Shown: one piece after another, positions 3,461 to 32,806 of the stretch
Position numbering within the stretch: position 1 is the stretch's first letter
Layout of the letters: each line of letters opens with the position of its first letter
Virus record (IMG/VR): IMGVR_UViG_3300045988_044216
Span: 1 to 32,806 of that record
Strand: one strand, 5' to 3'
Source of the DNA: a virus
DNA length: 32,806 bases
The notes under the pieces: generated by a model
Seen by the model: only the letters and a program-made list of their open reading frames with translations
Told to the model about the DNA's origin: nothing
Database searches by the model: none
Position numbers and translations under genes: made by a program

Positions 3461-3478
3461 CTTGACGGCTATTTATTT
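3443..3478 (+). terminator. Rho-independent terminator ending the late/lysis unit
   Basis: A 9-bp stem, GCCGTCAAG (3443-3451) paired with CTTGACGGC (3461-3469), with a 9-nt loop, then TATTTATTTG. Confidence 0.8.
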
Positions 3479-3491
3479 GATTATCAAGTTA

Positions 3492-3880
3492 GTAACACCT
3501 TTTGTAACGTCTAACTAATTGATATTCAGATAATTAATCGAATTAAAATATGTTAATGTACCGTAATGTAGCATAATTTGTCACGGATAACTCACTGATA
3601 TATAACTATTTAACCCCTACTGTTACAGATTTATATAAAAATAGTATATACTTTATATAGAGAATATTATAACATATAGTTATAATATTATAACCAAAAG
3701 TTATTGGTAAAACAGTATATTTTCCAAAATAAGTATAAGGAAGTTTTTGACCGATTTTTGTAACACAAGGGTTAACGTATTGATACGTAGGCGATTAAGC
3801 GTTACAACAGGTGTTACAAGCCGTTACAGAGTTGTAACAGTCACATTAAGAGTCTATTTTTCAGATAATTACGCGTTACA
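3492..3880. repeat. Noncoding iteron-like module A, paralogous to 19348-19842
   Basis: 23-nt units of form TGT[AC]AC-N3-TAACT-N3-TGAT[AC]T at 3503-3525 and 3579-3601, the second containing the 12-mer GTCACGGATAAC at 3580-3591. CTGTTACAG at 3620-3628. AT-rich core at about 3630-3700. GTTACA at 3801, 3813, 3823 and 3875; TGTAAC at 3759 and 3833. No ORF of 60 aa or more on either strand. Confidence 0.8.
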
Positions 3881-3935
3881 AATAAGTTTATTGTTAAACG
3901 TTGTTAATGAAATGTACAACCTATAGATATAATCC

Positions 3936-3960
3936 ATATATTTGCACCATAACAATTAAA
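3936..3960 (+). promoter_or_regulatory. Bacteroidota-type promoter cassette (-7 box TATATTTG at 3937-3944) for the first early gene
   Basis: Matches the TAnnTTTG consensus. The 25-nt string ATATATTTGCACCATAACAATTAAA recurs exactly at 4218-4242. In both copies the TTTG lies 28 nt before the ATG. Confidence 0.6.
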
Positions 3961-3971
3961 CATTAAACATT

Positions 3972-4214
3972 ATGAAAGCAATAAAATGTATCAATGCCGG
4001 ATATCTAACAGATGGCGACTTTATTATCATCAATCACATACTCATCTATGCGGACAGCAAAGGTAACGAGTATAACACCTCTTTTTCAGAGGTGCGCTTT
4101 AGAAGAAAAACAGAGTCCTACCAATTTAATGGTGAATCCTTTCAGTTCTTACAGCCACTAATGGAGGCTATTTTCTTAAATAAGATTAACGAAATAACCA
4201 ACGCATCAAAATAA
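3972..4214 (+). CDS. Hypothetical early protein (80 aa)
   Basis: ORF directly downstream of the promoter cassette. No recognisable motif. Confidence 0.6.
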   Translation: MKAIKCINAGYLTDGDFIIINHILIYADSKGNEYNTSFSEVRFRRKTESYQFNGESFQFLQPLMEAIFLNKINEITNASK

Positions 4215-4217
4215 TCT

Positions 4218-4242
4218 ATATATTTGCACCATAACAATTAAA
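4218..4242 (+). promoter_or_regulatory. Second copy of the early promoter cassette (-7 box at 4219-4226)
   Basis: Exact 25-nt repeat of 3936-3960, with the same spacing to ATG 4254. Confidence 0.6.
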
Positions 4243-4253
4243 AAGTAAGCATT

Positions 4254-4448
4254 ATGAAAACAAGTATTCACGATTTCTCATTCGTCCAATTAGGATACGG
4301 AAAGTACCGAGTTATTTATGAAAGCCCCGCAACCGGGAAACTGTGGTCTGTGGTAATTACGGATATGACTATTATAGACGCTACCAAAAACTCAGATAGC
4401 CCTAAAATCAAAGATTTAAACTCACTTAAAAGACTGTGTAAATTATGA
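4254..4448 (+). CDS. Hypothetical early protein (64 aa)
   Basis: ORF downstream of the duplicated promoter. Its stop overlaps the next start (ATGA). Confidence 0.6.
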   Translation: MKTSIHDFSFVQLGYGKYRVIYESPATGKLWSVVITDMTIIDATKNSDSPKIKDLNSLKRLCKL

Positions 4449-4903
4449 AATTCAAAGTATTTGCATTAGATTTCGATTCAAGCAACGCAGATGATGTTGC
4501 TTTCGTAAACAAAACCATTAAAGACCTGTTTTCGTCCTCTGAGACGGACGATTGTACGGTAACTGAGGCAACTGCATCGGTGACGGTAGAAAAGCCCGCA
4601 GACGCGCCAAAAACAACCCGTGCGCCTCGAAAACCGGAAGCCGTGCAGGAAACGCAACCTACTGTTGTTGAAATTTCCCAAACCGAGCCAGAAGAAACCA
4701 ACGACCTGCCGTTCTCCGAGGAAACTGAGGAGCCTACCGCAAAAGAGATGCAGGATTTAGTTATCGGACTTATCAAAGCTGGTACCTTAACCCGTGAAGA
4801 CGTTCAAAGCATTTTCCAAGAATTTGGCGGAACGTCCTTGTCTAAAATCCCGACTACGAAGTTCGTTTTACTCAAACAACGTTTAACTACCTATCATGAA
4901 TAA
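4445..4903 (+). CDS. Acidic, Pro/Thr/Glu-rich hypothetical protein (152 aa)
   Basis: The central low-complexity stretch TEATASVTVEKPADAPKTTRAPRKPEAVQETQPTVVEISQTEPEETNDLPFSEETEEPT is flanked by short, apparently structured ends. Coupled to its neighbours by overlapping stop and start codons. Confidence 0.65.
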   Translation: MKFKVFALDFDSSNADDVAFVNKTIKDLFSSSETDDCTVTEATASVTVEKPADAPKTTRAPRKPEAVQETQPTVVEISQTEPEETNDLPFSEETEEPTAKEMQDLVIGLIKAGTLTREDVQSIFQEFGGTSLSKIPTTKFVLLKQRLTTYHE

Positions 4904-6077
4904 AGAATCAACTATCAATCACGGAGAGAGTAGAGCGCATGCTCTACTCTCTCCGTCGTCATCCCATCGTTGGTTGGTCTGTACACCATCCGCACGTTTG
5001 GAAGACCCAATAGAGAACGTCGGTAGTTCGGCATCCGAAGAGGGAACAGTAGCCCATGAGCTTGCTGAATATGCACTGACCGAGTATCTGAAAGGAAATT
5101 ACTGCCCGCTTTTGGACGAACTTCCTACGCCTGCCGAGATAAAGGAAAGCAAGTATTATAGCTCAGAGATGGATAAGTACGTCACCGACTACGTTTGCTA
5201 CGTGGTAGACATGTACGAGAGGAAAGAGAATGCCTCTATGGCTATTGAACAGAAGTTCGACCTCACGTCATACGTACCGGAATGTTTTGGTAGTTGCGAT
5301 TGCAGCATAGTAAGCCCTAAAATGCTTGACATTATAGACCTTAAGTACGGCAAAGGTGTTAAGGTGGAAGCTAAAGACAATTCACAATTGATGATGTATG
5401 CTCTTGGGGTTCTCCGTTCCTTGTCCCCGAAGATGCAGACCGAAATAGAAACGGTACGTATGCACATCGCGCAGGTTCGTTTAGGTCACTTCGCGGTATT
5501 CGAGATGTCATCGCGTGACTTAACCCATTGGGGTATTCACGTACTTCGCCCAACGGCTGAAAAAGCATTTGCCGGAAAAGGTGATTGCGTAGTAGGTTCT
5601 CATTGCAAGTTCTGTAGGTTCAAACCGCAATGCCGTGCACAAAAAGACGCTTTGGTTGCCGAGTTTGAGGAACACGGTCCGACGAAAGCCCTTACTTTGG
5701 ACGAGATAGGAGACCTGCTTAAAAAAGCAGACATATTTACTGACTGGTTATCATCCGTCAAACAGTACGCCATGCAAGCATCATTAGAGGGAAAGACCGT
5801 AAAGGGCTGGAAACTTGTAGAGGGCAGAAGCGTTCGCACCATCACGGATGAAGAGGAGGCGGTTAAACGTCTCTCAGAGTTAGGTTTTGACGAGGACAGC
5901 CTTAAGAACCATAAGTTAAAAGGTATCGGAGACTTGGAAAAGATGGTAGGTAGGAAACCATTAGCCGTAACATTGGACGGCATACTAATTAAGCCATCTG
6001 GTGCTCCGACATTAGCCTTGGAAGATGATCCGCGCGAAGCGATAACGCCAACTATCGACTTGTTCGATAAAATATAA
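4896..6077 (+). CDS. PD-(D/E)XK nuclease of the DUF2800 / Cas4-like type
   Basis: N-terminal LSPSSSHRWLVCTPS motif, a D...DLKYGKG nuclease core and a C-terminal Cys cluster HCKFCRFKPQC. Precedes a DUF2815-type SSB, which is the usual arrangement in this replication module. Confidence 0.85.
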   Translation: MNKESTINHGESRAHALLSPSSSHRWLVCTPSARLEDPIENVGSSASEEGTVAHELAEYALTEYLKGNYCPLLDELPTPAEIKESKYYSSEMDKYVTDYVCYVVDMYERKENASMAIEQKFDLTSYVPECFGSCDCSIVSPKMLDIIDLKYGKGVKVEAKDNSQLMMYALGVLRSLSPKMQTEIETVRMHIAQVRLGHFAVFEMSSRDLTHWGIHVLRPTAEKAFAGKGDCVVGSHCKFCRFKPQCRAQKDALVAEFEEHGPTKALTLDEIGDLLKKADIFTDWLSSVKQYAMQASLEGKTVKGWKLVEGRSVRTITDEEEAVKRLSELGFDEDSLKNHKLKGIGDLEKMVGRKPLAVTLDGILIKPSGAPTLALEDDPREAITPTIDLFDKI

Positions 6078-6114
6078 ATAGTGTTAATTGTTAGGCGTAT
6101 ATAAATTTAATTCC

Positions 6115-6122
6115 TATATTTG
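6115..6122 (+). promoter_or_regulatory. Candidate -7 box TATATTTG
   Basis: TAnnTTTG match in the 97-nt gap upstream of ATG 6175. Confidence 0.5.
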
Positions 6123-6174
6123 CAGAAACGGAACGACCGAACCGATGAGAGGTCAATAAAACGTATAAAAAGTT

Positions 6175-6714
6175 ATGAAAGCAATGTTGAAAAATGTAAG
6201 ACTGAGTTATGTAAGAGTGTTTGAAGCTGAACAAGTAAACGGACAAGGCGATCCTATCTATAGCTTGTGCATTCTCGTGCCGAAAGACAGCCCAGAAGTA
6301 CCCGCCATTAAAGCAGCAATCGAGACAGAGTATAACAATCTGAAAGTGAGGTATCCGAAACTCGCAGGAAAGAATCCGAAGACGTGGAACAACCCACTTC
6401 ACGATGGTGACGAAGAAAAAGATGGTGAAGAATACAAAGGTCACTACTTCCTTAACGCCAAACGTAAAGAGAAACAAGGTGCACCTATCGTCATTGACAA
6501 ACATAAGCAGTATATCACGGATAAAAACGAGTTGTATAGCGGATGTTATGGAAATGTGGCAGTTTCGTTTTACCCGTATGAGTTTACAGGTAAATATGGC
6601 GTCGGTGTCGGTCTTAACGGTGTTCAGAAAGTGAGAGATGGTGAACGTCTGGACGGAGGTACGAGCGTTGACGATTTCGATACGATTGACGAGAACGATA
6701 GCCTTTTTGATTAA
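6175..6714 (+). CDS. Single-stranded DNA-binding protein, DUF2815 type
   Basis: Motifs VRLSYVRVFE, PLHDGDEE, YFLNAKRK, LYSGCYGNVAVSFYPYE and an acidic C-terminal tail DDFDTIDENDSLFD. Confidence 0.85.
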   Translation: MKAMLKNVRLSYVRVFEAEQVNGQGDPIYSLCILVPKDSPEVPAIKAAIETEYNNLKVRYPKLAGKNPKTWNNPLHDGDEEKDGEEYKGHYFLNAKRKEKQGAPIVIDKHKQYITDKNELYSGCYGNVAVSFYPYEFTGKYGVGVGLNGVQKVRDGERLDGGTSVDDFDTIDENDSLFD

Positions 6715-6724
6715 TCACTTATTC

Positions 6725-6759
6725 ACAGCCGGGTATAATAGAACCCGGCTGTATTTGTT
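6725..6759 (+). terminator. Rho-independent terminator
   Basis: A 10-bp stem, ACAGCCGGGT (6725-6734) paired with ACCCGGCTGT (6743-6752), with an 8-nt loop, then ATTTGTT. Confidence 0.75.
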
Positions 6760-6765
6760 AAAAGC

Positions 6766-7857
6766 ATGGGAAAATATGATAGTTATTTGAACGCGCAGGG
6801 CGTAAGGATTTCAAAAGCAACTGGTAAACCAGTTAAAGCATATAACAAGAAGAACAAAGCCTACTGGGCTATGCGCGATGAAGGACAGCCAGATCGTATA
6901 AGGTCTCAAGAAGTTAATCCCGTGATAGCAGAACTGCAAAGCCTATACACTGAGGAAGAGATAAAAGGTATAATCGGTCTTAAAAAAGACGCTTCGCCCA
7001 TCGAGCTTGTGGAGATAACCGCGAAAAGTCATTCGGACAGGGAGGGTAGCACAGGTTTCCTTATTGCATCTGACTGGCATGCTGATGAAGTGGTTAAGGC
7101 ATCAACTGTTTTGGGCAAAAACGAGTATGATAAAGACATAGCCGAGGCTCGCATAAAAACTTTCTTCGCCAATGCCGTGTACATGATACGCAAAAAGCCT
7201 GTAGACAATCTGGTAGTAGCTTTTATAGGTGACCTTATAGGCGGTTTCATTCATCCCGAATTAGAACAAACCAATAGCATGTCTCCGATGGCAGGCATAT
7301 CGTTCGTTAAGAGCTTGATTATATCAGGTCTTAAATATCTGAATGATAATTTGCCTGATCTCGATAAGATAACCGTTATAGGTATATGCGGAAACCATTC
7401 GCGCACAACTAAAAAGATGCAGTTTAGTAACGGTTTCGAGATGAACCACGAGTACTTTATGTACAAGGATATCGAACATACCGTTACATTGATGGGGCTT
7501 ACAAAGTTTCAGTTTGTCATCCCGGAAAGCGAGTTCGCCTATATCGACATATACGGCAAGAAAGTGTTGTTTGCCCACGGACACCAGTTCAGAACGGCAG
7601 GCGGTATTGGTGGTATTTACCCATCTATGTTAAGATGGTACTCAAAGATGAACCAGACGCTAAAGATTGACAAGGCATTTATCGGTCACTACCACACCTC
7701 TATATACACTAAAGAGGTATGCGTGAACGGTTCCCTTAAGGGTTTCGATGCGTTCGCTATGGGGCACGGATTGGCTTTTGAAGAGCCGCAGCAAACCTAC
7801 GTAATATTGAACGAGAAACGCGGGTTTATATTCTATACACCGATCTTTGCGGACTAA
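6766..7857 (+). CDS. Calcineurin-like metallophosphoesterase (Mre11/SbcD-like fold)
   Basis: Ordered motifs SDWHAD, GDLIGG, GNHS, AHGH and GHYH, preceded by ~100 aa of unassigned N-terminal sequence. Confidence 0.8.
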   Translation: MGKYDSYLNAQGVRISKATGKPVKAYNKKNKAYWAMRDEGQPDRIRSQEVNPVIAELQSLYTEEEIKGIIGLKKDASPIELVEITAKSHSDREGSTGFLIASDWHADEVVKASTVLGKNEYDKDIAEARIKTFFANAVYMIRKKPVDNLVVAFIGDLIGGFIHPELEQTNSMSPMAGISFVKSLIISGLKYLNDNLPDLDKITVIGICGNHSRTTKKMQFSNGFEMNHEYFMYKDIEHTVTLMGLTKFQFVIPESEFAYIDIYGKKVLFAHGHQFRTAGGIGGIYPSMLRWYSKMNQTLKIDKAFIGHYHTSIYTKEVCVNGSLKGFDAFAMGHGLAFEEPQQTYVILNEKRGFIFYTPIFAD

Positions 7858-7864
7858 ACTTATT

Positions 7865-7907
7865 GGCTATTATTTGTTAAATTACTGCAAATAATAGCCC
7901 TTTTTAT
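7865..7907 (+). terminator. Rho-independent terminator
   Basis: A 12-bp stem, GGCTATTATTTG (7865-7876) paired with CAAATAATAGCC (7888-7899), then CTTTTTAT. Confidence 0.8.
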
Positions 7908-7928
7908 GCCCTATCTAAAAACTTATAC

Positions 7929-7936
7929 TAACTTTG
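7929..7936 (+). promoter_or_regulatory. Candidate -7 box TAACTTTG
   Basis: TAnnTTTG match 29 nt before ATG 7965. Confidence 0.5.
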
Positions 7937-7964
7937 CGAACGTAATTTAAAAATATTTACGCTT

Positions 7965-9980
7965 ATGAGACACCTTTTCATTGACTTTGAAACATATTCG
8001 GGAACGGATATAAAAATAGCGGGTAATTATAAATATTGTGAAGACTCGGAATTCGAGATACTGCTTTGCGGTTACGCGTTTGACGACGAAGACGTGAACA
8101 TTATCGACTTATCGAAAGCTATGGGGCCCGAAAAGTTCAACACATTATTTTCCTACGTGGAAGAGAATACCGATATCGTATTAGTGGCACATAACGCCAA
8201 CTTTGAACGCATCTGTTTGAAAGAATACGGATATAACATACCTCCCGAACGGTTTTTCTGTACAGCTAATATGTCTTTGTATTGCGGTCTTCCGGCGTCA
8301 TTGGGACAGGTTTCCGAGATACTTAATTTGAAAGACAAAAAGTTAGACACAGGCAAAGACTGGATACGTTATTTTTCCATGCCATGCAAACCTACAGTCT
8401 CGAACGGCAAACGGACACGCAATCGCCCTTATCACAATCCCGATGGATGGGGCGAGTTTAAGGAATACCTTAAGTATGACGTACTGTCCGAAAGGGAAAT
8501 CTTCAATAAGTTATCTGTATTCGAGTTTCCATCCTCTGAGCAGGCGATATACGCTGCCGACCAACGTATCAATGATTACGGGATTAAAGCCGACTTGCAA
8601 CTTGCTAAAAACGCTGAGGATATATCTAACACAGAAAAAGCCTTTTTGGAAGACCGTGCAATGCACAGATACGGTATAACTTCCATGAAATCACATCCTC
8701 AGATGAAAGAATTTATACGTGTCCGTACAAGATTGATAGTAGATTCCCTTAACAAAGGAGTTATAGCCGACATTGTTAACCAGATAAAAGGGTTAGACCG
8801 AATATCCGAGGATGACAAACGGGACGTCCTAGACGTGCTGGAAATGCGTAACGAGATCAATAAGACATCCAACGCAAAGTATACCGCCATCTTATCATGT
8901 GTCGGACGTGGAGACCGAATACGAGGTCTGTTTAGATACTATGGGGCGAACCGCACGGGACGTTGGGCAGGACGCCTTGTTCAGTTACAAAACCTGCCGC
9001 AGAACCACATAGAGGACTTGGATACCGCAAGGCAACTTGTAAAAGACAAAGACCTGCAGTTAATGAAGTTATTGTATAACAAGCCAACACACATCCTGTC
9101 CCAACTTATCCGTACAGCGTTCGTTGCCCCCGATGGTTATACGCTATGCGTTGCTGACTTTTCCGCTATCGAGGCACGCGTTATCGCGTGGGTTGCCAAC
9201 GAACAATGGCGACTGGAATTATTCAAAGACCCAAAGTCGGATATATATTGCGCTTCGGCGTCGAAAATGTTTGGCGTTCCCGTCCATAAAGGTGACGAGT
9301 TGAGACAGAGAGGTAAAGTAGCCGAGCTTGCATTAGGTTATGGCGGTGGTGTTAACGCGCTTACCACGATGGATACCAAAAAAGCACTGACGGAAGAGGA
9401 AAAACCCGAAATCCTGTATAAGTGGAGGGATGCAAACCCGAATATTGTATCTTTGTGGAAGTGCCTTGAAAGATGTGCTAAAACATGCATCAGTACCAGA
9501 CAGGAACAGGTATTTAAGATAGACGAAAACGCCCGCCTCGTATTCAGATATGAGCATGGTGCGATGACTATCGAACTGCCATCCGGTCGGAAACTGTTCT
9601 ACCCGTCCGCAAGACTCGGTAGCCGGACGATAAAAGGCGCAAACGGAGATTTCGATGTGCAGGATATATCCTACATGGGACAAGACCAAACGACTGGAAA
9701 GTGGGTTAAGTTGCACACTTATGGCGGAAAGCTGACGGAGAACGTTATCCAAGCCATATCACGCGATTTACTTGCTAACGCCATCTTTAAAGTGTTCGAC
9801 CTCGGATATGATATCGTCCTGCATGTGCACGATGAGATAGCCGCCGAGATACCAAAAGACGGGAACGAGGGACAAACCCTGCAAAGAATGAGCGATGCAA
9901 TGTGCACCGCACCCGGATGGGGTGTGAATATCCCATTAAGAGCGGCAGGTTACATAACCGATTATTACAAAAAAGACTAA
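7965..9980 (+). CDS. polA: Family A DNA polymerase with 3'-5' exonuclease domain
   Basis: Exonuclease motifs FIDFETYS and YLKYDV. Polymerase motif A is DFSAIEARV, motif B is RQRGKVAELALGYGGG and motif C is VHDEI. Also RTGRWAGRLVQLQNLPQN. Confidence 0.92.
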   Translation: MRHLFIDFETYSGTDIKIAGNYKYCEDSEFEILLCGYAFDDEDVNIIDLSKAMGPEKFNTLFSYVEENTDIVLVAHNANFERICLKEYGYNIPPERFFCTANMSLYCGLPASLGQVSEILNLKDKKLDTGKDWIRYFSMPCKPTVSNGKRTRNRPYHNPDGWGEFKEYLKYDVLSEREIFNKLSVFEFPSSEQAIYAADQRINDYGIKADLQLAKNAEDISNTEKAFLEDRAMHRYGITSMKSHPQMKEFIRVRTRLIVDSLNKGVIADIVNQIKGLDRISEDDKRDVLDVLEMRNEINKTSNAKYTAILSCVGRGDRIRGLFRYYGANRTGRWAGRLVQLQNLPQNHIEDLDTARQLVKDKDLQLMKLLYNKPTHILSQLIRTAFVAPDGYTLCVADFSAIEARVIAWVANEQWRLELFKDPKSDIYCASASKMFGVPVHKGDELRQRGKVAELALGYGGGVNALTTMDTKKALTEEEKPEILYKWRDANPNIVSLWKCLERCAKTCISTRQEQVFKIDENARLVFRYEHGAMTIELPSGRKLFYPSARLGSRTIKGANGDFDVQDISYMGQDQTTGKWVKLHTYGGKLTENVIQAISRDLLANAIFKVFDLGYDIVLHVHDEIAAEIPKDGNEGQTLQRMSDAMCTAPGWGVNIPLRAAGYITDYYKKD

Positions 9981-9981
9981 T

Positions 9982-12414
9982 ATGGAATTAAGGAAAATGA
10001 TTTTTAAGATAGCTACAGCCACAAGCGCAAAGTCGGTGACATGGAAGAACCGTAACTTTACTTGGGACGAGCTTGTAGAAAAATTCACCAGTGCCAAAGT
10101 GACCGAAGAGACCTACAAGGAATTTATAAGCGCGAGCAAGGCAGAACAGGGAAATATCAAGGACGTGGGCGCGTTTATGGGCGGTGAACTATTCGGTAGC
10201 AGACGTAACAAGAACAACGTAGGCGAGCGTTCGTTAATGGCATTAGACATAGATTTCGGAGAGGCTGATTTCCCGTCTCGGTTCTTTGCGACTATCGGAT
10301 GTGCCTGCATAATTCACGGTACACATAAGCATAACCCGAAAGCGGGTGTGTTGCGCTACAGGGTTATCGTTCCTTTGTCCGAGCCTGTAGACAGCGAACA
10401 ATATGAGGCTTTATCCCGTAAAGTGGCAGAACTCACAGGGATAGACTTGTACGACCGAACAACGTTTCAGCCGGAACGCTGCATGTTCTTTCCGTCAGTA
10501 TCCAAAGACGTAGATTTTGATTTCACGGATTATTCGCAGGTATGTGACGAACCGTTGGACGTCCAAAAGTACCTTGGTTACTACGAGGATTGGCATGATA
10601 CGACCCAATGGGCGTACCACAAAGACGAAAAGGGAGAAGTAAGGTCACTTGCAAAAGAGCAGCAAGACCCTACGCTGAAAGATGGCGTAGTGGGCGATTT
10701 CTGCCGTGCCTACAGCATTTCGGAAGCAATAGCCGCATATCTGCCAGATGTGTATGAACCTACCGAAAAATCAGACCGTTGGACGTTTACAGGTGGTACT
10801 ACTTCGGGTGGCATGCTGACGTTTGACGACACGTTCGCCTATTCTTTCCATAATAATGATCCTATACAGGGAAACCATGTGTTCAACGCGTTCGACCTTG
10901 TGCGTGTTCACCTGTTCGGTAAGATGGGTAAGAAAGAGAGCATGGAAGCTATGTCAGACTTGGTTAACAAAGACCTCAAAGTAGCTGCCGGACGTGCACA
11001 ACGTTTGGCTATAAAAGCGATGAGTACCGTAGCGGATTTCGATGACATAGTAGAGGCTGAGGTTGTCGAACAGAATATGCCCGACAACTCGTATGAGAAT
11101 GCGATGGCTGAGTTAGACACCGACAAGCGAGGAAATTATTTGCCCACGGCCAAAAACCTCAGCTTAATCATGCGTTATGATCCGAAGTTGCAAGGACTCA
11201 TCGCACGTGACTTATTCAAAGAAAGACGTGTAGTTACTCGCGTTCCGGCATGGAGACCAAAAGACAGCACTTCAGACTTTCAAGACGTGGACTTTGCGGG
11301 TGTACGTAAACATATAGAGGACGTGTACGGAATAACTGGCAGCGCGAAGATTGATGATGCCATTGCATTATCAGCCGAACTAAACTCGTTCCATCCCGTG
11401 CAGGAATATCTCACCGGGTTAACATGGGATGGCGTTGAACGAGTTGATACCGCCCTCATCGATATAATGGGCGCGGAAGACACCATATTCACCCGTGAGG
11501 CTTTCCGTATAATGCTTGTGGGCGCGGTTAAGCGCATATTCCAAAAGGGGTGCAAGTTTGACAGTATGCTTGTCCTGCAATCCGAGCAAGGCGCGGGAAA
11601 GAGTACATTTTTGCAGAAGTTAGGAAAAGGATGGTTTTCCGACAGCCTGTCTAATATGGACGGCAAAGGCGCGTTCGAACAACTGCAGGGAAGTTGGATC
11701 ATCGAGATAGCCGAATTATCGGCTATGAAGAAATCAGACGTAGAGATGGTTAAGAACTTTATCACGAAGACTGAGGACAGTTACCGACCTGCATACGGAC
11801 GCGTTACGAAGAACTTTCCGCGCCAATGTGTATTCTTCGGTACTACGAACAAAGATGAATTTCTGAAAGATGCCACGGGTGGCAGGCGTTTCCTGCCTGT
11901 ACGATGCAAGGTGAACGCGAATACCTATAAGATATTCGAAAAGGATTTCGGAAAATACATAGATCAACTTTGGGCTGAGGCTGTGCAGATGTACTACAAT
12001 AAAGTAAGTACTTTACTTTCACCAGAAGCAGAAATGCTTGCTGAACAGTATCGTGAAGAGCATTACGAGAATGATCCTCGGGCATACGCAGTCCGCAAAT
12101 ATATGGAGATGTACGTACCGTCGGACTGGGGGCGCATGAGCTCATTGGAACGAAAGATGTACTACGCCAACTATGACGAAGACGAAGTAGACAAGCTGAA
12201 ATGCAAGCTCATTGACTTTGTTAGTGTTCCTGCCATCTTGGTTGAGGCGATGGATATTGAGATAGGTAAGATTAAGCGGTCGGACGCTGCCGATATGGTG
12301 TCTATGCTCAATAAACTGCCCGATTGGGAACGGTCTACGAGACGCAGTAAAGCCTACGGTCAGCAACGCGGGTATGCTCGTATAGTTAACGAACCTTTAG
12401 AAAATAACGATTAG
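9982..12414 (+). CDS. Primase-polymerase / VapE (VirE)-like P-loop helicase fusion
   Basis: N-terminal acidic catalytic stretch LMALDIDFGE plus HGTHKH. Central/C-terminal Walker A SEQGAGKSTF and Walker B-like WIIEIAEL. Confidence 0.85.
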   Translation: MELRKMIFKIATATSAKSVTWKNRNFTWDELVEKFTSAKVTEETYKEFISASKAEQGNIKDVGAFMGGELFGSRRNKNNVGERSLMALDIDFGEADFPSRFFATIGCACIIHGTHKHNPKAGVLRYRVIVPLSEPVDSEQYEALSRKVAELTGIDLYDRTTFQPERCMFFPSVSKDVDFDFTDYSQVCDEPLDVQKYLGYYEDWHDTTQWAYHKDEKGEVRSLAKEQQDPTLKDGVVGDFCRAYSISEAIAAYLPDVYEPTEKSDRWTFTGGTTSGGMLTFDDTFAYSFHNNDPIQGNHVFNAFDLVRVHLFGKMGKKESMEAMSDLVNKDLKVAAGRAQRLAIKAMSTVADFDDIVEAEVVEQNMPDNSYENAMAELDTDKRGNYLPTAKNLSLIMRYDPKLQGLIARDLFKERRVVTRVPAWRPKDSTSDFQDVDFAGVRKHIEDVYGITGSAKIDDAIALSAELNSFHPVQEYLTGLTWDGVERVDTALIDIMGAEDTIFTREAFRIMLVGAVKRIFQKGCKFDSMLVLQSEQGAGKSTFLQKLGKGWFSDSLSNMDGKGAFEQLQGSWIIEIAELSAMKKSDVEMVKNFITKTEDSYRPAYGRVTKNFPRQCVFFGTTNKDEFLKDATGGRRFLPVRCKVNANTYKIFEKDFGKYIDQLWAEAVQMYYNKVSTLLSPEAEMLAEQYREEHYENDPRAYAVRKYMEMYVPSDWGRMSSLERKMYYANYDEDEVDKLKCKLIDFVSVPAILVEAMDIEIGKIKRSDAADMVSMLNKLPDWERSTRRSKAYGQQRGYARIVNEPLENND

Positions 12415-12468
12415 AGTTAATAAACTGTTAAATATAGGCGGAACGATACAACGTATTATATAAACGCC

Positions 12469-12476
12469 TATATTTG
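12469..12476 (+). promoter_or_regulatory. Candidate -7 box TATATTTG
   Basis: TAnnTTTG match in the 95-nt gap, 34 nt before ATG 12510. Confidence 0.5.
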
Positions 12477-12509
12477 CAGTACAATATTAATCTAAAAAGT
12501 AAAAGCATT

Positions 12510-12893
12510 ATGAAGAAAGTATTAATCATTTTAGCGGTAGTCTTATTCGGGCTTTCCGCTTGTTCCAAGCACGAAGTTGAGAATGCTATGGAAGTTACGT
12601 TCCTGTTTGATAAAGGTGCGCACGCAGCCGAGATAGACGGTGCGTACGGCATTATATTCCGGCAGGTAGGGAACAAAAGATATTATGCGGTGCAAGGTAC
12701 AGGTAGCGGGAAATTCGTTCCCGTCATCCGGCAAGAATTCCCCAACACCGACATTTTCATACTTAACACCGACGTACAGGTGTCGGTATATTCTATGCAG
12801 ATAATAGTATTCACCCGCCTGTCTGATGGTAAGATTATACACAAGACCAAAATCGGTTATACCAATGACAGCGTGGGAAAAATAGAATTATAA
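12510..12893 (+). CDS. Predicted lipoprotein (127 aa)
   Basis: MKKVLIILAVVLFGLSAC is a signal peptide with lipobox LSAC. ATG 12510 is preferred over the track start at 12474, which would lie inside the promoter. Confidence 0.7.
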   Translation: MKKVLIILAVVLFGLSACSKHEVENAMEVTFLFDKGAHAAEIDGAYGIIFRQVGNKRYYAVQGTGSGKFVPVIRQEFPNTDIFILNTDVQVSVYSMQIIVFTRLSDGKIIHKTKIGYTNDSVGKIEL

Positions 12894-12915
12894 ACAATTT
12901 AACATTTTAAAAATT

Positions 12916-13113
12916 ATGAAAACAGGAAATTTTGTAGATTTAGAGTTTGTAGTAAAGGGATTTATCCAAGTCGAACAGATTAATGCCGAGCATATTAGTC
13001 GACTATTGGTGATGGATGATAAACCCTATATTGGTATGCTCGGACAAGCATATACCCGTCAGTTGACAATGGATAGCTTTATGAAACTGTGTGACAAACT
13101 TAACTTGGAATAA
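12916..13113 (+). CDS. Hypothetical protein (65 aa)
   Basis: ORF tiled between neighbouring + strand genes. AT-rich. No motif. Confidence 0.5.
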   Translation: MKTGNFVDLEFVVKGFIQVEQINAEHISRLLVMDDKPYIGMLGQAYTRQLTMDSFMKLCDKLNLE

Positions 13114-13115
13114 CA

Positions 13116-13277
13116 ATGATACGGGTATTAAGAGTTAGACATTTTGATGAAGAAACAGGGAAATGTCAAATGAGTATTCTTTTTAAAGACGAATTTGAAA
13201 CTGCCGAGGAAGCAAGGGATTATTATCAAGAATTATATAAATGTAAAATTTTATTAGATTATGAAACAATCGAATGA
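13116..13277 (+). CDS. Possible small ORF (53 aa, below the track cutoff)
   Basis: My own translation from ATG 13116 gives MIRVLRVRHFDEETGKCQMSILFKDEFETAEEARDYYQELYKCKILLDYETIE. It fills an otherwise empty 147-nt gap and overlaps the next start. Confidence 0.35.
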   Translation: MIRVLRVRHFDEETGKCQMSILFKDEFETAEEARDYYQELYKCKILLDYETIE

Positions 13278-14004
13278 TGGAGACACAAGGTCTTACAATG
13301 TGGGTAACTCGGATTATGCAAAGCATAAAATCCAGCCGTGGGATATCTGGAAAGAATACCGACTTAACCCGTGGGATGCAGATATAGTGAAACGCGTGTT
13401 ACGTAACAAGACATGTGAGGACAGACGTTTGGATTACGAAAAGATTATCCATGTGTGCAAGGAACGTATCAGACAGTTAAACGATGTGGGCACACCCGAT
13501 AATAAATCCGATGAAGAAGAGGACATAGACGGTACAACAGTTATGTGCCCGTCCGAGTTGGATAAGCCGCCCATGCATGAAGAATCCAAGTTAAAATATG
13601 GAGAACTTAAGTATGTCGTATATTCGGTATTTAAGCACACAGATAAGTGGTACGCCTATCTCGGATACTGTGCCGGAATGGGCACACACATATATTTACA
13701 ATTTACTGGTGCGTTATCTTGGAGCTATACAGAAACTAAAGGGTATCCAAAAGCGACTTTCCAGAGACAGGCTCCCATTGGTAGTGAGAATCATAATTAT
13801 TCGGTGAAAATAGGAGCCGCTGAGAACGGATATGTAAAATATGACTATATAATAAGTAACGGTATCCTCTACAGGTATTTCGGTTTCGACTGGTCAACTC
13901 AAAAGCACCGATATAAGATGTTCCTGCAGTTTGATGGTATCACAGATGTAGATTCAAAAAACATGATAAGAAACGAAGCTGAGCAAAAAACATGCGAGAA
14001 ATAG
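13261..14004 (+). CDS. DUF3310-domain protein with a long C-terminal extension
   Basis: The N-terminus NSDYAKHKIQPWDIWKEYRLNPWDADIVKRVLR resembles the DUF3310 signature. About 140 further residues are unassigned. Confidence 0.7.
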   Translation: MKQSNDGDTRSYNVGNSDYAKHKIQPWDIWKEYRLNPWDADIVKRVLRNKTCEDRRLDYEKIIHVCKERIRQLNDVGTPDNKSDEEEDIDGTTVMCPSELDKPPMHEESKLKYGELKYVVYSVFKHTDKWYAYLGYCAGMGTHIYLQFTGALSWSYTETKGYPKATFQRQAPIGSENHNYSVKIGAAENGYVKYDYIISNGILYRYFGFDWSTQKHRYKMFLQFDGITDVDSKNMIRNEAEQKTCEK

Positions 14005-14330
14005 TAAGCGAGAAAGCACTGGAAAAGACATTCAGCGACTATCTTAACCGAACCAAGAAAGTGTGGGTAATTAAATTACTATCCACTTTTGTTAAAGGCC
14101 TTCCTGACCGTTTGATACTATGCCGAGGTGGCTTTGTCGGCTTCGCCGAGATAAAGACTACAGGAAAAAAACCAACGAAGATACAGGCCTATATCCATAG
14201 TAAGCTACGGGCACTGGGATTCCCGGTGTTTGTGATTGACGATATCGAGAGTAGGGACGCCGCAATAAGATATTTCTTAAACAATGTTAAGGAAATAACC
14301 AACGTATCAGGTAAACCCTTATCTTTGTGA
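13992..14330 (+). CDS. VRR-NUC family nuclease
   Basis: PD-(D/E)XK core GLPDRLIL ... GFAEIKTTGKKPT ... Q. Size (112 aa) and position upstream of the SNF2 helicase gene are typical. Confidence 0.8.
   Translation: MREIVSEKALEKTFSDYLNRTKKVWVIKLLSTFVKGLPDRLILCRGGFVGFAEIKTTGKKPTKIQAYIHSKLRALGFPVFVIDDIESRDAAIRYFLNNVKEITNVSGKPLSL
14320..14327 (+). promoter_or_regulatory. Candidate -7 box TATCTTTG
   Basis: TAnnTTTG match overlapping the end of the VRR-NUC gene, 51 nt before ATG 14378. Confidence 0.4.
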
Positions 14331-14377
14331 CATAACATTAAAGCCAATTAGTAAATAAACCCTAAAATCAAAAATTT

Positions 14378-14638
14378 ATGAGTTCAAATAACAAGAAGCG
14401 CACCATGCGTGAAGATATCGAGTATAGACTCGGATTATACTTTAGTATCAAGTCTGGTGTTATGTACGTCTGCGATGAAAAATACGGTTCGCAAGAAGAG
14501 ATTCTGATCCGCTTGGAACAGGAGGTAACAACGGACGTTAAGTTCTTACTCAAAAAGGAACATAACATTATCCTTGATTCGCAACTATCTTTCAGAGACG
14601 TGGCACTTTTGTACCGTGACAAACTAATGATTAGATAA
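14378..14638 (+). CDS. Hypothetical protein (86 aa)
   Basis: ORF in the co-directional tiling. No motif. Confidence 0.55.
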   Translation: MSSNNKKRTMREDIEYRLGLYFSIKSGVMYVCDEKYGSQEEILIRLEQEVTTDVKFLLKKEHNIILDSQLSFRDVALLYRDKLMIR

Positions 14639-14639
14639 C

Positions 14640-14852
14640 ATGGCAACTACCTATCTGAATGTCGATGTGTCCTCACAAAGGGGGCACTCACAAGTAAAGG
14701 TTAACGGGGCGACTGGGTATGAGAATATACTGCATGTTATGCGGAACGCACCTATCAGAGACTTAATACAGGTGAGAATTGAACTTTTAAAGCTGTTACG
14801 AACAATAGATGATGCTCTAATCGAGGCTTATAAACCAATAAGAGACCTGTAA
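14640..14852 (+). CDS. Hypothetical protein (70 aa)
   Basis: ORF. Its stop shares one nt with the SNF2 start (TAATG). Confidence 0.55.
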   Translation: MATTYLNVDVSSQRGHSQVKVNGATGYENILHVMRNAPIRDLIQVRIELLKLLRTIDDALIEAYKPIRDL

Positions 14853-16246
14853 TGTTACAAAGAAACCAACTGCATAGTTATCAAGAACGAGGCATCAGTC
14901 ATATACTGGATAACCCGTATTGTGCCTTGTTCCTTGATATGGGTCTCGGAAAGACCGTTACAACATTGACAGCCATTAAGGAATTGCTGGATAACTGCAT
15001 CATAGGCAACGCGCTCGTGGTAGCCCCGAAGAAAGTAACACAAGTCACTTGGTCTGATGAAATAAAGAACTGGGCACACCTGCAAGGTCTGACTATCTCG
15101 GTGATTGATGGCAATGTTAAGCAAAGACACGAGGCCATGAGACGCAAAGCCGACATATACGCGGTAAGCCGTGATAACATCGTTTGGCTGGTTACAGAGA
15201 TGGGTGGTGTCAAGTTGCCTTATGACATGGTGGTTATCGACGAGTTATCCAGTTTCAAGAACCCCCAGTCGAAACGCTTTAGAGCGTTACGCAAAGTGCG
15301 GAAGTTCATTCCGCGCGTTGTCGGTCTGACAGGAACACCGTCGCCCAACGGGCTTATTGACCTGTTTGCTCAGATGTATCTGATCGACGAGGGAGAAAGA
15401 CTTGGGAAAACCATCACGGGCTACAGGGACAGGTTTTTTAGACCAGATAAGCGTAACGGCGATATAGTTTATACCTATGCGCTCAAAAAGCCCGCAGACG
15501 AGACGGAAAAAGCCATAAGTGACTTGATTAGTGATATAACCATATCCATGACAGCCGAAGATTATTTGAAGATGCCGGATAGGATCATGTTGTATGATTA
15601 TGTCGACATGTCCGACCGATGCTTGGAAGGCTACCGGAACTTTGCCATGGAACAGGTCTTGGATCTTATCAACTCGGACGAGCCTATTACAGCCGCCTCA
15701 GCCGCAGCACTGAGTAACAAGTTACAGCAGTATGCCAATGGCGCGATTTACGATGCCGATCGTAACGTCAAAGAAATCCATGACGAGAAGCTGGAAAAGC
15801 TGAAAGAAATCGTTGAGGCTGCCAATGGTGCGCCTGTCCTCGTAGCATACCAGTACCAGCATGACCTGCACAGGATTATGAAAGTGCTCAAGGAATATAA
15901 GCCTGTAAAGCTGGAAAAGCCCGAACAGGTCGCGCAGTGGAACGCGGGTGAGATAGATGTGCTGGTTACGCATCCAGCCTCAGCCGGGCACGGACTCAAC
16001 CTACAAAAAGGTGGTAACATACTGGTCTGGTTTGGCAATACATGGAGTTTGGAATTATACATGCAGTTCAATGCAAGACTGTACCGACAGGGACAAACAA
16101 AGCCTGTGTACATCCATCACATTGTGACGCGTGATACAATAGACGAGAAAATTATAAAAGCATTATCCAACAAAAAAGAAACACAAGACGGATTAATGCA
16201 AAGTATTAAAGAATTAATGGAAATATATAAAGATGAAAAATTATAA
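14852..16246 (+). CDS. SNF2-family helicase/translocase
   Basis: Motif I is DMGLGKT, motif II is VIDELSSF, motif III is LTGTPSPN and motif VI is ARLYRQGQTKPV. Confidence 0.9.
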   Translation: MLQRNQLHSYQERGISHILDNPYCALFLDMGLGKTVTTLTAIKELLDNCIIGNALVVAPKKVTQVTWSDEIKNWAHLQGLTISVIDGNVKQRHEAMRRKADIYAVSRDNIVWLVTEMGGVKLPYDMVVIDELSSFKNPQSKRFRALRKVRKFIPRVVGLTGTPSPNGLIDLFAQMYLIDEGERLGKTITGYRDRFFRPDKRNGDIVYTYALKKPADETEKAISDLISDITISMTAEDYLKMPDRIMLYDYVDMSDRCLEGYRNFAMEQVLDLINSDEPITAASAAALSNKLQQYANGAIYDADRNVKEIHDEKLEKLKEIVEAANGAPVLVAYQYQHDLHRIMKVLKEYKPVKLEKPEQVAQWNAGEIDVLVTHPASAGHGLNLQKGGNILVWFGNTWSLELYMQFNARLYRQGQTKPVYIHHIVTRDTIDEKIIKALSNKKETQDGLMQSIKELMEIYKDEKL

Positions 16247-16823: not shown

Positions 16824-17738
16824 ATGAACATCGGAATATTAGCAGTTGATAGTAATTATCCTAATCTCGCATTGATGAAGATAAGCAGCTATCATAAGAC
16901 GAGAGGCGATAGCGTAGAGTGGTATAATCCTCTAGGTATCTATGATAAGGTTTATGCGGCGAAAGTCTTTTCTTTTACCCCAGATTATGTCTATTACATC
17001 AATGCCGATCAAGTCGAGAAAGGCGGTACAGGATATGACATAAGTAAGGTTCTTCCGGTAGAAGTTGATAGAATAGTTCCCGACTATAACCTGTATAACA
17101 TTGATGAGAATTTGGCTTATGGCTTTTTGACAAGGGGCTGCCCTAATCGTTGTAAATGGTGTGTTGTACCTACTAAAGAGGGGAACATCGCTCCTTACAT
17201 GGATATTGCGGAAGTATCTGCCGGGCGAAAAAATGTGATTCTGATGGATAACAATGTACTTGCATCCGACTACGGTTTGCAACAGATCGAAAAAATTGTC
17301 TCCATGGGCGTACGAGTTGACTTTAATCAAGGTTTAGACGCCCGTCTGGTTACGGATGAAATTGCTCAACTACTTGCTAAAGTTAAGTGGATAAAGCGAA
17401 TAAGATTCGGTTGTGATACACCGGGACAGATTGCAGAATGTGAGCGTGCTACGGCTTTGATTGATAAACATGGTTATAAGGGCGAATATTTTTTCTACTG
17501 CATTCTACTGAATGATTTTAAGGAAGCATTTACCCGTGTCAATCATTGGAAGAACAAAGGTCGTCGATTCTTGCCTTACTGCCAGCCTTACAGAGATTTG
17601 AATAATCCGCGTCAGATCATACCGCAATGGCAAAAGGATTTAGCCAGATGGGCCAACAATAAGTGGTTTTTTAGAAGTTGTGAATTTAAAGACTTCGCCC
17701 CACGAAAGGGGTTTGTGTGTAGTGAATATTTCAATTAG
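16824..17738 (+). CDS. Radical SAM enzyme, substrate unknown
   Basis: CPNRCKWC is the canonical CxxxCxxC 4Fe-4S/SAM motif, at residues 106-113 (nt 17139-17162). It is preceded by a ~100-aa N-terminal domain (MNIGILAVDSNYPNLALMKISSYH...). Confidence 0.8.
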   Translation: MNIGILAVDSNYPNLALMKISSYHKTRGDSVEWYNPLGIYDKVYAAKVFSFTPDYVYYINADQVEKGGTGYDISKVLPVEVDRIVPDYNLYNIDENLAYGFLTRGCPNRCKWCVVPTKEGNIAPYMDIAEVSAGRKNVILMDNNVLASDYGLQQIEKIVSMGVRVDFNQGLDARLVTDEIAQLLAKVKWIKRIRFGCDTPGQIAECERATALIDKHGYKGEYFFYCILLNDFKEAFTRVNHWKNKGRRFLPYCQPYRDLNNPRQIIPQWQKDLARWANNKWFFRSCEFKDFAPRKGFVCSEYFN

Positions 17739-19149: not shown

Positions 19150-19192
19150 CAAGATGTAAAGGACAATATAGCTTTCACATTGATAGGTATTG

Positions 19193-19235
19193 GGGCTGGT
19201 TTGATGTTAGATTGTCAAATCAGCCCTTTCTTTTT
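19193..19235 (+). terminator. Rho-independent terminator ending the early unit
   Basis: A 12-bp stem, GGGCTGGTTTGA (19193-19204) paired with TCAAATCAGCCC (19215-19226), including one G-U pair, then TTTCTTTTT. Confidence 0.8.
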
Positions 19236-19347
19236 ACCGCGTTTCGCGTGGGCTTTTTTGCCATCAGACCGTAAAAAGAAGCGTTTTTGTCCGAATTTCA
19301 GTAAAAGTAATAAATTATGATGTATTAAATTTAACAGGGCTAAAATG

Positions 19348-19842
19348 TGTAACAGATAACTCTCTGATATATAGTATGTTAGAAAATGCCAAAAATGTAT
19401 TTGTCACGGATAACTATCTGATCTGTTGGTAGTTAGCTATAAATAAAAAATACTGACGTACCGTTTTTGTAGCACCTTTTGTAACACCTAACTTACTGAT
19501 CTATAATTACTTATTATTACTGTTACCACAATATATATTATTTATATAAAAGAGTATATAGATAATATACTATATATTGCAATGTAGAGATAGCAATATA
19601 TGGTATATATTTCTCTTGAAGCTCAAGGGCGTTTTTCTGTAACAGTGTAACACTTGGAGGTAAGTGGTTGAGTATCACGGAGTTATCCGTGACAAAAGGT
19701 GTTACAAACTTTTTGGTCAAAAAGTCGGTTTTTTAGATAAGTATCTGTAGGTGAGCGAGTTATCCGTGACAGAGGCTTTTTGGCGTTTTTGATTAACTTA
19801 TTGAATTTCAATTAGTTATCTGTGACAAAAAGTTTGTAACAG
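19348..19842. repeat. Noncoding iteron-like module B, paralogous to 3492-3880
   Basis: Forward 23-nt units at 19348-19370, 19402-19424 and 19480-19502. AT-rich core at about 19520-19615. Reverse 12-mers GTTATCCGTGAC at 19682-19693 and 19759-19770, and GTTATCTGTGAC at 19815-19826. TGTAAC/GTTACA hexamers at 19638, 19646, 19701 and 19835. Confidence 0.8.
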
Positions 19843-20007
19843 TAAATTTTATTGGTAAGTATGTATTACTTTGGTCTAAAATTCCTGTTAACCACACTCT
19901 TGCGGGTTTTGGATAAAATCGAGCCGTAGATATACGGTAGGCAGCAAAGATAGTTGATGTGTGGTTATAATACAAATGTCGGGCAGTCGTATTTGAGAAC
20001 TTAACCC

Positions 20008-20042
20008 GGTTTGCTTTTCTGCTATAAGTGATGTACTTTTGT
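20008..20042 (+). promoter_or_regulatory. Late promoter (-33 TTTG at 20010-20013, -7 TACTTTTG at 20034-20041)
   Basis: GGTTTGCTTTTCTGCTATAAGTGATGTACTTTTGT fits the Bacteroides TTTG ... TAnnTTTG architecture. A ~28/35 identical copy lies at 22891-22925. Confidence 0.65.
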
Positions 20043-20113
20043 ATCACAATCAAGTGACTGTGCGATTTCGCACACCCGCGAAACCCTTATATACTTATTA
20101 ATCCCCCTACGAT

Positions 20114-20734
20114 ATGGCAGGAAGAAAGAAGAACTCAACAGATACTAAAAAAGATATAGTGAAAGGCGCGGCTACGGGCATAGCCCCCGTACCGATGCCG
20201 CACATAGCTGCTTGCTCACAGCTTTACGAGATCGTGCAGACTCGCGGCACTCACGGTGCGGTATTGCGCTGCCTGGACGATTGCATTAACTACGTAGCCG
20301 AGTATATGCGGTTCTGCGCCGATAACCCGTTTATTTCTTACGAGATACTGAGAGGCGGGAGCGCAGCAGGTACTAAAGTGGAAGTGGAAAAGAAACGTTC
20401 TCCGTCCGTTGGCGGTTTCTGCCTGTTTATCGGATGGAGCATAAGAACCTTTAATAAGAATATGGAAAGACTTGAAAAGCTTGTGACTGATGGCGATAGC
20501 GAAGCTGCTAACCTGTTGCTTGGTTATTCCCTTATAAAGGAATTGATAACCACGGAGATGGACGAGGCGGCTTTGGCAGGTATGGTAGATGCTTCGTATA
20601 TGGCGAGACTGCGCGGTTTGCGTGACCTTAAGGACGTAACCAGCAACGGTAAAGAAGCGGGCACAAAAGCCATGCAGATAAACGTGCTGTCTACCGAGGC
20701 GGTCGAGAATCTTAAGAAGCTGGGGGGCATCTAA
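20114..20734 (+). CDS. terS: Terminase small subunit
   Basis: Directly upstream of terL, sharing one nt with it. Basic N-terminus, and RSPSVGGFCLFIGWSIRTFNKNMERL resembles the HTH segment of gp3-type small terminases. Confidence 0.65.
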   Translation: MAGRKKNSTDTKKDIVKGAATGIAPVPMPHIAACSQLYEIVQTRGTHGAVLRCLDDCINYVAEYMRFCADNPFISYEILRGGSAAGTKVEVEKKRSPSVGGFCLFIGWSIRTFNKNMERLEKLVTDGDSEAANLLLGYSLIKELITTEMDEAALAGMVDASYMARLRGLRDLKDVTSNGKEAGTKAMQINVLSTEAVENLKKLGGI

Positions 20735-32723: not shown

Positions 32724-32806
32724 ATGGCAACAGAGAAATCAACGGCAGTAGCCGAGAACGAAGTAACAACGGCAGTAGCCGATACCGAGAACGAAGTAAC
32801 AACGGC
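32724..32806 (+). CDS. 5' part of the wrap-around repeat-containing gene (continues at nt 1)
   Basis: ATG 32724, translating as MATEKSTAVAENEVTTAVADTENEVTTA... The frame is continuous with nt 1-366 after collapsing the 50-nt duplicate. Confidence 0.6.
   Translation, partial: MATEKSTAVAENEVTTAVADTENEVTT
32757..32806. repeat. Terminal 50-nt duplicate of nt 1-50 (circular closure signature)
   Basis: Base-by-base identity of nt 32757-32806 with nt 1-50. Confidence 0.95.

Follow-up and report, generated by a model that had tools for sequence, protein, structure and literature searches.

Two paralogous repeat arrays bordering the replication module of a Bacteroidales phage are probable SaPI-type origins read by the phage primase-helicase

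The virus record IMGVR_UViG_3300045988_044216 of IMG/VR, whose 32,806 nucleotides (nt) we analyzed in full (hereafter the window), carries two related arrays of short repeats built around AT-rich cores: copy A at 3499-3880 and copy B at 19340-19850. We propose that they are probably two paralogous replication origins of the type known from Staphylococcus aureus pathogenicity islands (SaPIs), both read by the phage's own primase-helicase. An earlier note, made from the letters of the window alone, had described copy B and offered three readings of it: an origin with iterons and an easily melted core, a cos/pac packaging site bound by the small terminase, or an operator array for a switch protein. 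The origin reading is now favored on three grounds: the AT-rich core is the stability minimum of the genome; among the phage proteins, the replicative primase-helicase alone co-varies with the repeated word; and this primase-helicase is homologous to the SaPI Rep initiators, whose origins have the same layout.

Copy B lies in a gap of 964 nt without credible genes (gap B, 19150-20113), between the end of the early operon, marked by two terminator-like hairpins with T-runs (19192-19227 and 19237-19251, + strand), and the late promoter and terS. The six copies of a 12-mer reported there are exact in position and sequence: three forward, GTAACAGATAAC at 19349-19360, GTCACGGATAAC at 19403-19414 and the degenerate GTAACACCTAAC at 19481-19492; and three reverse, GTTATCCGTGAC at both 19682-19693 and 19759-19770, and GTTATCTGTGAC at 19815-19826. 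Each sits in a 23-nt unit of the form TGTMACNNNTAACTNNNTGATMT (TGTMAC-N3-TAACT-N3-TGATMT). On the + strand, the left arm consists of units B1 (TGTAACAGATAACTCTCTGATAT, 19348-19370, no mismatches), B2 (TGTCACGGATAACTATCTGATCT, 19402-19424, matching the unit pattern) and B3 (TGTAACACCTAACTTACTGATCT, 19480-19502, with a degenerate word, TGTAGCAC, 5' of it at 19468). On the - strand, the right arm consists of B4 (19672-19694, one mismatch), which includes the palindrome TCACGGA-gtta-TCCGTGA (19675-19692, likewise exact), B5 (19749-19771, two mismatches) and B6 (19805-19827, one mismatch). Two short words close to the core, TGTAACAG and TGTAAC(AC), are found at 19638-19651 (+ strand), at positions where relatives carry TGGAACA or TGGCACAG, and a perfect 16-nt inverted repeat (TGTTACAAACTTTTTG at 19700-19715, CAAAAAGTTTGTAACA at 19826-19841) that bears GTTACA/TGTAAC words brackets units B5 and B6.

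The enrichment of these elements is pronounced. Allowing for up to two mismatches, the 23-nt unit has eight matches against 0.02 expected, and all eight are intergenic, in only two gaps. The 12-mer pattern GTMACNGATAAC matches exactly six times in 32.8 kb, five times within 19349-19826 and a sixth time at 3580; a whole-genome motif count, as first suggested, thus finds none of the six in coding sequence. With one mismatch, nine matches are obtained where shuffled sequences give 1.18 on average. The interspersed TGTAAC/GTTACA hexamers are also a genuine feature: the two gaps together span 4.5% of the sequence but hold 19 of the 50 copies of TGT[AC]AC (binomial p = 2e-13), with 9 and 10 copies per gap where a Markov model of gap composition expects about one. 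Rfam and tRNA scans of the window gave no match, nor did a blastn search of 50,697 phage records with the gap sequence; relatives were reached via their proteins. An exact 16-mer scan of viral contigs returned 14 loci, of which only three, all from contig 3300045988_047216, are related, the others being chance matches.

Between the two arms of copy B lies the AT-rich core (19498-19612), a predicted DNA-unwinding element. The AT-richness noted earlier proves extreme: the segment 19498-19578, with 15% GC, is the least stable 80-bp duplex window in the genome (-76.4 kcal/mol), and the second least stable is the core of copy A (3624-3704, 14% GC, -76.7 kcal/mol). The next lowest window is at -84.8 kcal/mol, for a mean of -107.7 and a standard deviation of 7.1. 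Multiple alignment of relatives further delineates in core B a 22-nt block, ATTGCAATGTAGAGATAGCAAT (19576-19597), nearly invariant in gap B of loci L063, L020, L017 and L026 despite their differing iteron words, and present in copy A in loose versions only; it could be the site of a second factor or a priming signal. DnaA boxes (TTATNCACA) have three matches in the window, none of them in either gap, and show no enrichment. The unit segment TTATCCGTG was considered as a DnaA box and rejected, as it matches at only 6 of 9 positions and the gaps hold no true boxes.

The array of gap B had been presented as a single one. The array is there, but it is not the sole occurrence: a colinear paralogue, copy A, had been overlooked in the only other long gap (gap A, 3461-3971), between the last late gene, in the lysis region, and the first early gene. 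Copy A consists of two forward 23-nt units (3503-3525 and 3579-3601, + strand), the AT-rich core, and TGTAAC/GTTACA words that mostly face the core, at 3622 (-), 3759 (+), 3801, 3813, 3823 (-), 3833 (+) and 3875 (-). Local alignment of 3501-3871 with 19400-19743 reaches a score of 157, compared with 47 +/- 7 for shuffles (maximum 69), and the two copies are colinear. The first and last 50 nt of the window (1-50 and 32757-32806) are identical, which indicates a circular assembly of about 32.76 kb; on this circle the arrays are 15.9 kb apart, about opposite each other. They bracket the replication module (3972-16246) exactly, the genes between them encoding a DUF2800 nuclease, an Enc34-type single-stranded DNA-binding protein (SSB), an exonuclease, a family-A DNA polymerase, a VapE-like primase-helicase of 810 residues and an SNF2 helicase. 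Repeats in such a position might be non-functional or recombinational marks of replication-cassette exchange at module boundaries, the more so as, in some relatives, the two copies share some 100-120 nt of near-identical sequence. We regard this as extremely improbable: both copies in the window keep the words although their framework has fallen to about 60% identity, the words change with a protein domain encoded kilobases away (see below), and direct repeats around an essential module would be deleterious unless selected.

Insight into the function of the arrays comes from their evolution. For comparison, we used 60 IMG/VR loci fetched around the primase-helicase gene, together with the isolates EMB2, BM127P1, BV57P3 and PM682P6; in all, 971 homologues were detected. 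The two-gap layout is shared by the 60 loci and by EMB2, BM127P1 and BV57P3, and every relative for which both gaps are captured has an identical short word in gaps A and B. The word differs, however, between lineages: TGT[AC]AC in the window, L063, L016 and L020; TGGAACA in L017 and BM127P1, with T/CGGAACA in BV57P3; TGGCACAG in ten loci; NNCACAG in EMB2-like phages; and TGACCAG in L028, L062 and L065. In a multiple alignment these words interchange at fixed positions of a common framework (..TAACT..CTGAT.., AT core, ..GTTA..). The 12-mer therefore stands as a set of real sites but not as a single motif, being a composite of a lineage-specific word (GTMACNG) and of a framework (ATAAC..TGAT) kept in relatives with other words. 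Likewise, the search of syntenic positions in relatives that had been suggested recovers the framework in both gaps but, outside L063, L016 and L020, another word.

Within one genome, copies A and B are 60-81% identical, which makes them old paralogues. Among EMB2-like phages, orthologous arrays (A with A, B with B) show about 80% identity, and the word has switched in A and B together. Such a joint switch in two diverged copies suggests that both are selected to match one binder; judging from these alignments, recent gene conversion does not explain the agreement between the words of A and B.

To identify the protein that tracks the word, all + strand open reading frames (ORFs) of the loci were grouped into about 30 families and tested column by column against word class, whole-protein identity being too blunt for this association. 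Within the EMB2-like clade, three columns of the primase-helicase are diagnostic for TGACCAG versus CACAG phages. No diagnostic column is found in PolA, SSB, the DUF2800 nuclease, SNF2, TerS or TerL, nor in the gene just 5' of gap B; the DUF6549 gene just 5' of gap A has one, and an out-of-frame ORF inside the helicase gene has two. Top column mutual information is 0.71 in the primase-helicase, against at most 0.48 in other well-sampled families (0.44 in TerS). Four primase-helicase columns reach at least 0.4, and all of them (EMB2 residues 789, 793, 794 and 796) belong to the wing of the C-terminal domain. Three further, small families with high values were discarded: family 22 is hypervariable in every phage without tracking the word, and families 33 and 34 are out-of-frame ORFs. 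No class-specific accessory gene was found among the families of the fetched loci.

The primase-helicase varies with word class in its C-terminal 110 residues or so, the C-terminal domain being 31-52% identical between classes versus 79-84% for the remaining protein. Within it, a variable segment (W.R....K..G..RGY) changes with the word: QRAANGK-TV accompanies TGCACAG; KRSADAK-SV, TACACAG; QRAAGRR-AV, TGACCAG; ERSR--Q-RVKSYGQQRGF, TGGCACA; and ERST--R-RSKAYGQQRGY, TGTMAC. In an independent comparison, the wing motif YGN has its N in all three GGAACA-word lineages, where the TGTMAC and TGGCACA classes have YGQQ. L017 and BM127P1, although only 35% identical in the C-terminal domain, share WVRSRRR.KA.GN.RGY. 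In the loci compared, only the primase-helicase tracks the word, via wing residues of its C-terminal domain. The linker that joins the primase to the helicase (residues ~346-382) is a second lineage-variable segment of this protein.

The primase-helicase gene (9982-12414, + strand) encodes an N-terminal primase, a superfamily 3 (SF3) VapE-like helicase, recognized by the Pfam VapE-like domain, and the C-terminal domain; PHROG profiles span the whole protein as helicase/primase. Residues 389-736 match PDB 7pds (chain 7pds_A, a SaPI1 Rep1-DNA complex) with E=1.6e-76, the sole match when PDB sequences are searched at E<=1. Residues 379-810 as modeled by AlphaFold2 (pLDDT 85.7, from 33 sequences) superpose on whole 7pds chains over nearly the full target length, with template modeling (TM) scores of 0.79-0.83 and 32-33% identity across about 440 columns; the next best structure matches are NrS-1, the PrimPol of African swine fever virus, poxvirus D5/E5 and SaPI5 PriRep5. 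Model residues 363-422 fold as strand-strand-helix-helix-beta-hairpin (block pLDDT 81-91). According to this model, the protein ends in a winged helix (residues ~738-810, 12193-12411, + strand), with a recognition helix at ~766-777 and the class-variable segment as its wing, a basic beta-hairpin (WERSTRRSKAYGQQRGYARIV, ~782-800). While the earlier note recognized no DNA-binding regulator in the genome, this domain is the predicted binder and the predicted determinant of specificity.

The combination of iterons, an AT-rich centre and an SF3 winged-helix initiator is a design already known from the SaPI replicon. SaPI Reps are self-loading initiator-helicases whose C-terminal winged helix binds iterons of 5-6 nt, present in 6-12 copies per origin; the origin is AT-rich at its centre, which is flanked on either side by two or more iterons in opposite directions, and binding and melting proceed without ATP (PMC9371898). 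The phage protein resembles SaPI1 Rep1 (PDB 7PDS) as an SF3 helicase and predicted initiator, homologous in sequence and predicted fold, C-terminal domain included, and resembles SaPI5 PriRep5 in the fusion of helicase and primase. The arrays follow the same plan, with short opposed iterons, about 9-10 words per copy, flanking an AT-rich centre: copy B has three forward units on the left and three reverse units on the right, plus short words, and copy A has two forward units on the left and mostly reverse words on the right. Unlike in SaPIs, which are Gram-positive satellites, the iterons of this Bacteroidota phage are set in 23-nt units with a conserved, non-specific part. Iteron plasmids (RepA/pi/TrfA) and the lambda ori likewise combine a winged-helix initiator with binding sites in direct repeat next to an AT-rich unwinding element; the phage differs from these in the absence of DnaA boxes from its gaps, in convergent repeats instead of a one-sided direct array, and in an initiator that is an SF3 helicase and not of the RepA type.

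By analogy with SaPI Reps, replication would proceed as follows. The iteron words (core TGT[AC]AC, in 23-nt units) face inward from both sides toward the AT-rich unwinding element and would be recognized by the C-terminal domain through its basic wing and recognition helix. Hexamers of the self-loading helicase would form on the two arms and melt the AT-rich centre; synthesis would then be primed by the fused N-terminal primase and continued by the family-A polymerase with the Enc34-type SSB. We thus infer that the primase-helicase binds the words and melts the cores, and that replication starts at either or both copies.

Several observations weigh against this proposal. The SaPI origin adjoins the 3' end of rep, whereas the two full copies of the phage are about half a circle apart and lie ~6 kb 5' and ~7 kb 3' of the primase-helicase gene; the next ORF begins 60 nt past its stop codon (12414 to 12474), and wherever relatives have a gap at this place, it contains no words. 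The test of diagnostic residues relies on a TGACCAG class of three loci, two of which are near relatives, and word classes otherwise follow phylogeny. A start of replication at the arrays is deduced from sequence features, among which GC skew is uninformative: GC and AT skew are positive throughout and give no origin signal because every gene is on one strand, the + strand. The same binding events may be regulatory, both arrays being 5' of promoters. Finally, two of the more distant relatives (L077 14740-15183 and L078 19916-20239) depart from the full architecture. Gap B of the Phocaeicola phage BV57P3 retains the right half of the array alone, and the Parabacteroides phage PM682P6 has five TTGTCTA words in a single orientation, around an AT core, in gap A only. 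Considering these two phages, the second copy may be auxiliary rather than a full origin.

The latter observations leave some room for an arrangement in which only one copy is a true origin and the other a cis-acting partner: the helicase would bind both, one would fire, and the other would loop or handcuff to enhance or limit initiation. Phage P4 provides the precedent, as its alpha protein is a fused primase-helicase whose C-terminal domain recognizes the same iteron in ori and crr, which lie apart on a small genome. The present phage shares with P4 the fused primase-helicase, a predicted C-terminal DNA-binding domain and an identical iteron at two separated loci, here about half a circle apart, and the arrays of BV57P3 and PM682P6 make gap A look ancestral or primary. 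However, crr is a pair of direct repeats and not a second ori-like unit, whereas the loci of the window, like those of most relatives, are colinear paralogues that both possess the complete architecture, each with two arms and its own AT core, the cores ranking first and second genome-wide. We therefore judge a single origin with a partner site rather unlikely. Two origins in one phage are known from the Bacillus phage SPP1, where oriL and oriR have the same G38P boxes beside an AT-rich region and oriL is inside the initiator gene. The two candidate origins of the window similarly share initiator boxes next to an AT-rich region; they differ in that both are intergenic and in that the predicted initiator is the helicase itself, G38P being a separate protein that recruits a DnaB-type helicase via a loader. 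In the literature on this phage group, we found no description of two full origin copies at the boundaries of the replication module.

The position of the arrays also calls for considering transcriptional control. Bacteroides promoters follow a TTTG/TAnnTTTG consensus, and each array is located between a terminator and a putative -7 box of the next operon, both boxes being read here against TAnnTTTG: TATATTTG at 3937-3944 (+ strand), 3' of copy A, for the early promoter, and TACTTTTG at 20034-20041 (+ strand), 3' of copy B and 5' of terS, for the late promoter. Both boxes are kept in relatives. The arrays could then be operators of the early and late promoters, bound by a moonlighting helicase or an unrecognized factor and without a role in initiation, and iteron-binding initiators do often autoregulate. 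Yet the words sit ~60-700 nt 5' of the -7 boxes without overlapping them; no DNA-binding domain or regulator was detected with Pfam and PHROGs in the small early proteins tested; no other protein family or accessory gene tracks the word, which also leaves the separate switch protein of the earlier note without support; and inward-facing repeats around extreme AT cores would be left unexplained. A purely regulatory role thus appears quite improbable. Two other promoter-like interpretations of the units were discarded. A sigma-70 promoter (TTGTAA-17-TATAAT, 19479-19507, 10/12) belongs to a kind of match no commoner in the sequence than in shuffles, and this consensus is inapplicable to the units because the host is a Bacteroidales species. 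As for promoters of a phage RNA polymerase, no gene for such an enzyme was found among the ORFs scanned, and half of the units would face against every gene.

Copy B is immediately 5' of terS (20114-20734), where pac- or cosB-like packaging repeats bound by the small terminase might be expected. What speaks against this explanation is the complete second copy, 16 kb from terS at the lysis-to-early boundary, together with the lack in TerS of any residue diagnostic of word class. Furthermore, the terminase resembles the headful type of P22 gp3/Terminase_3, the assembly is circular, and the deposited sequences of relatives begin at many different places, as fits permuted headful packaging. A packaging role for the arrays is therefore very improbable, all the more as better pac candidates exist in some relatives (L064, L069, L041, L065 and L029), in which tandem repeats of variable copy number occupy the 5' leader of terS, between the late -7 box and the gene. 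L064 has a 17-copy repeat of the AATACCGGGAT type, L069 six copies of TAGTCCAACTA, and the others repeats of the AGTCCRA.TACTGG type; in the EMB2-like loci examined (L065, L033 and EMB2), a conserved hairpin, CTCGCGCATCTCTTTAAGAGACCGCGAG, follows on the 3' side. These repeats, of which the window has none, are possibly pac/TerS sites or an RNA leader.

The phage itself is a member of a Bacteroides/Phocaeicola siphophage group, as judged from its terminase: TerL shares 84% identity with its counterpart in the Bacteroides uniformis phages EMB1/EMB2 and the BU241P series, and 76-77% with the TerL of Phocaeicola and Parabacteroides phages, which designates a Bacteroidales species as the host. The junction of the circle falls within a coding tandem repeat, GAGAACGAAGTAACAACGGCAGTAGCCGATACC. 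In the early module, a radical-SAM protein of 304 residues (16824-17738; PHROG 9298, E=2e-128) may be involved in DNA or nucleotide modification. Two other elements were encountered in relatives and are absent from the window. The first is an element of about 85 nt (GGTTGCTCTTACCAAAACTAGAAGC...GGAAAGATTAAAAAGTGAATGGAATTTAATCACCGA), 3' of a Bacteroides-type promoter and tandem in some loci, which follows either the primase-helicase gene or the early promoter (L078 27058-27449, - strand; L076 21913-22320; L015 29308-29832, - strand; gap A of L065). It is a candidate structured RNA, and Rfam scans at the gathering threshold of two relatives, BM127P1 and BV57P3, gave no match, for this element or otherwise. 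The second is a family of small early proteins (MEKYSKAVSEMYSQF...EVVGY...GGW...DVVFKxCExYWYV), for instance L015 24827-25099 (EMB2_00035), which has one or two paralogues per genome and, in every phage, a hypervariable middle of about 25 residues, a pattern that looks like targeted diversification.

Beyond two origins acting separately, the arrays could form a coupled pair, bridged by the helicase-initiator across the half-circle, that would split the genome into early and late domains and either time the early-to-late switch or direct replication co-directionally with the downstream operons. We consider this unlikely. If it were true, recombination between the direct-repeat copies could resolve the circle into two sub-genomic replicons, and one specificity would govern replication, the boundaries of transcription domains and incompatibility between co-infecting gut phages.

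Our analysis puts forward two candidate origins, and a specific protein as their initiator, for a widespread family of gut phages of Bacteroides, Phocaeicola and Parabacteroides, whose members are annotated almost wholly as 'hypothetical protein'. The duplication of the array across half a circle, far from the primase-helicase gene, raises the question of what is gained from two identical origins for a self-loading helicase, or whether one copy is a control site. Moreover, the five or more iteron words, which each go with their own short wing sequence on a single winged-helix scaffold, constitute candidate orthogonal Rep/ori pairs, which may be of use for Bacteroides vectors, for phage engineering and for the study of how wing residues read DNA.

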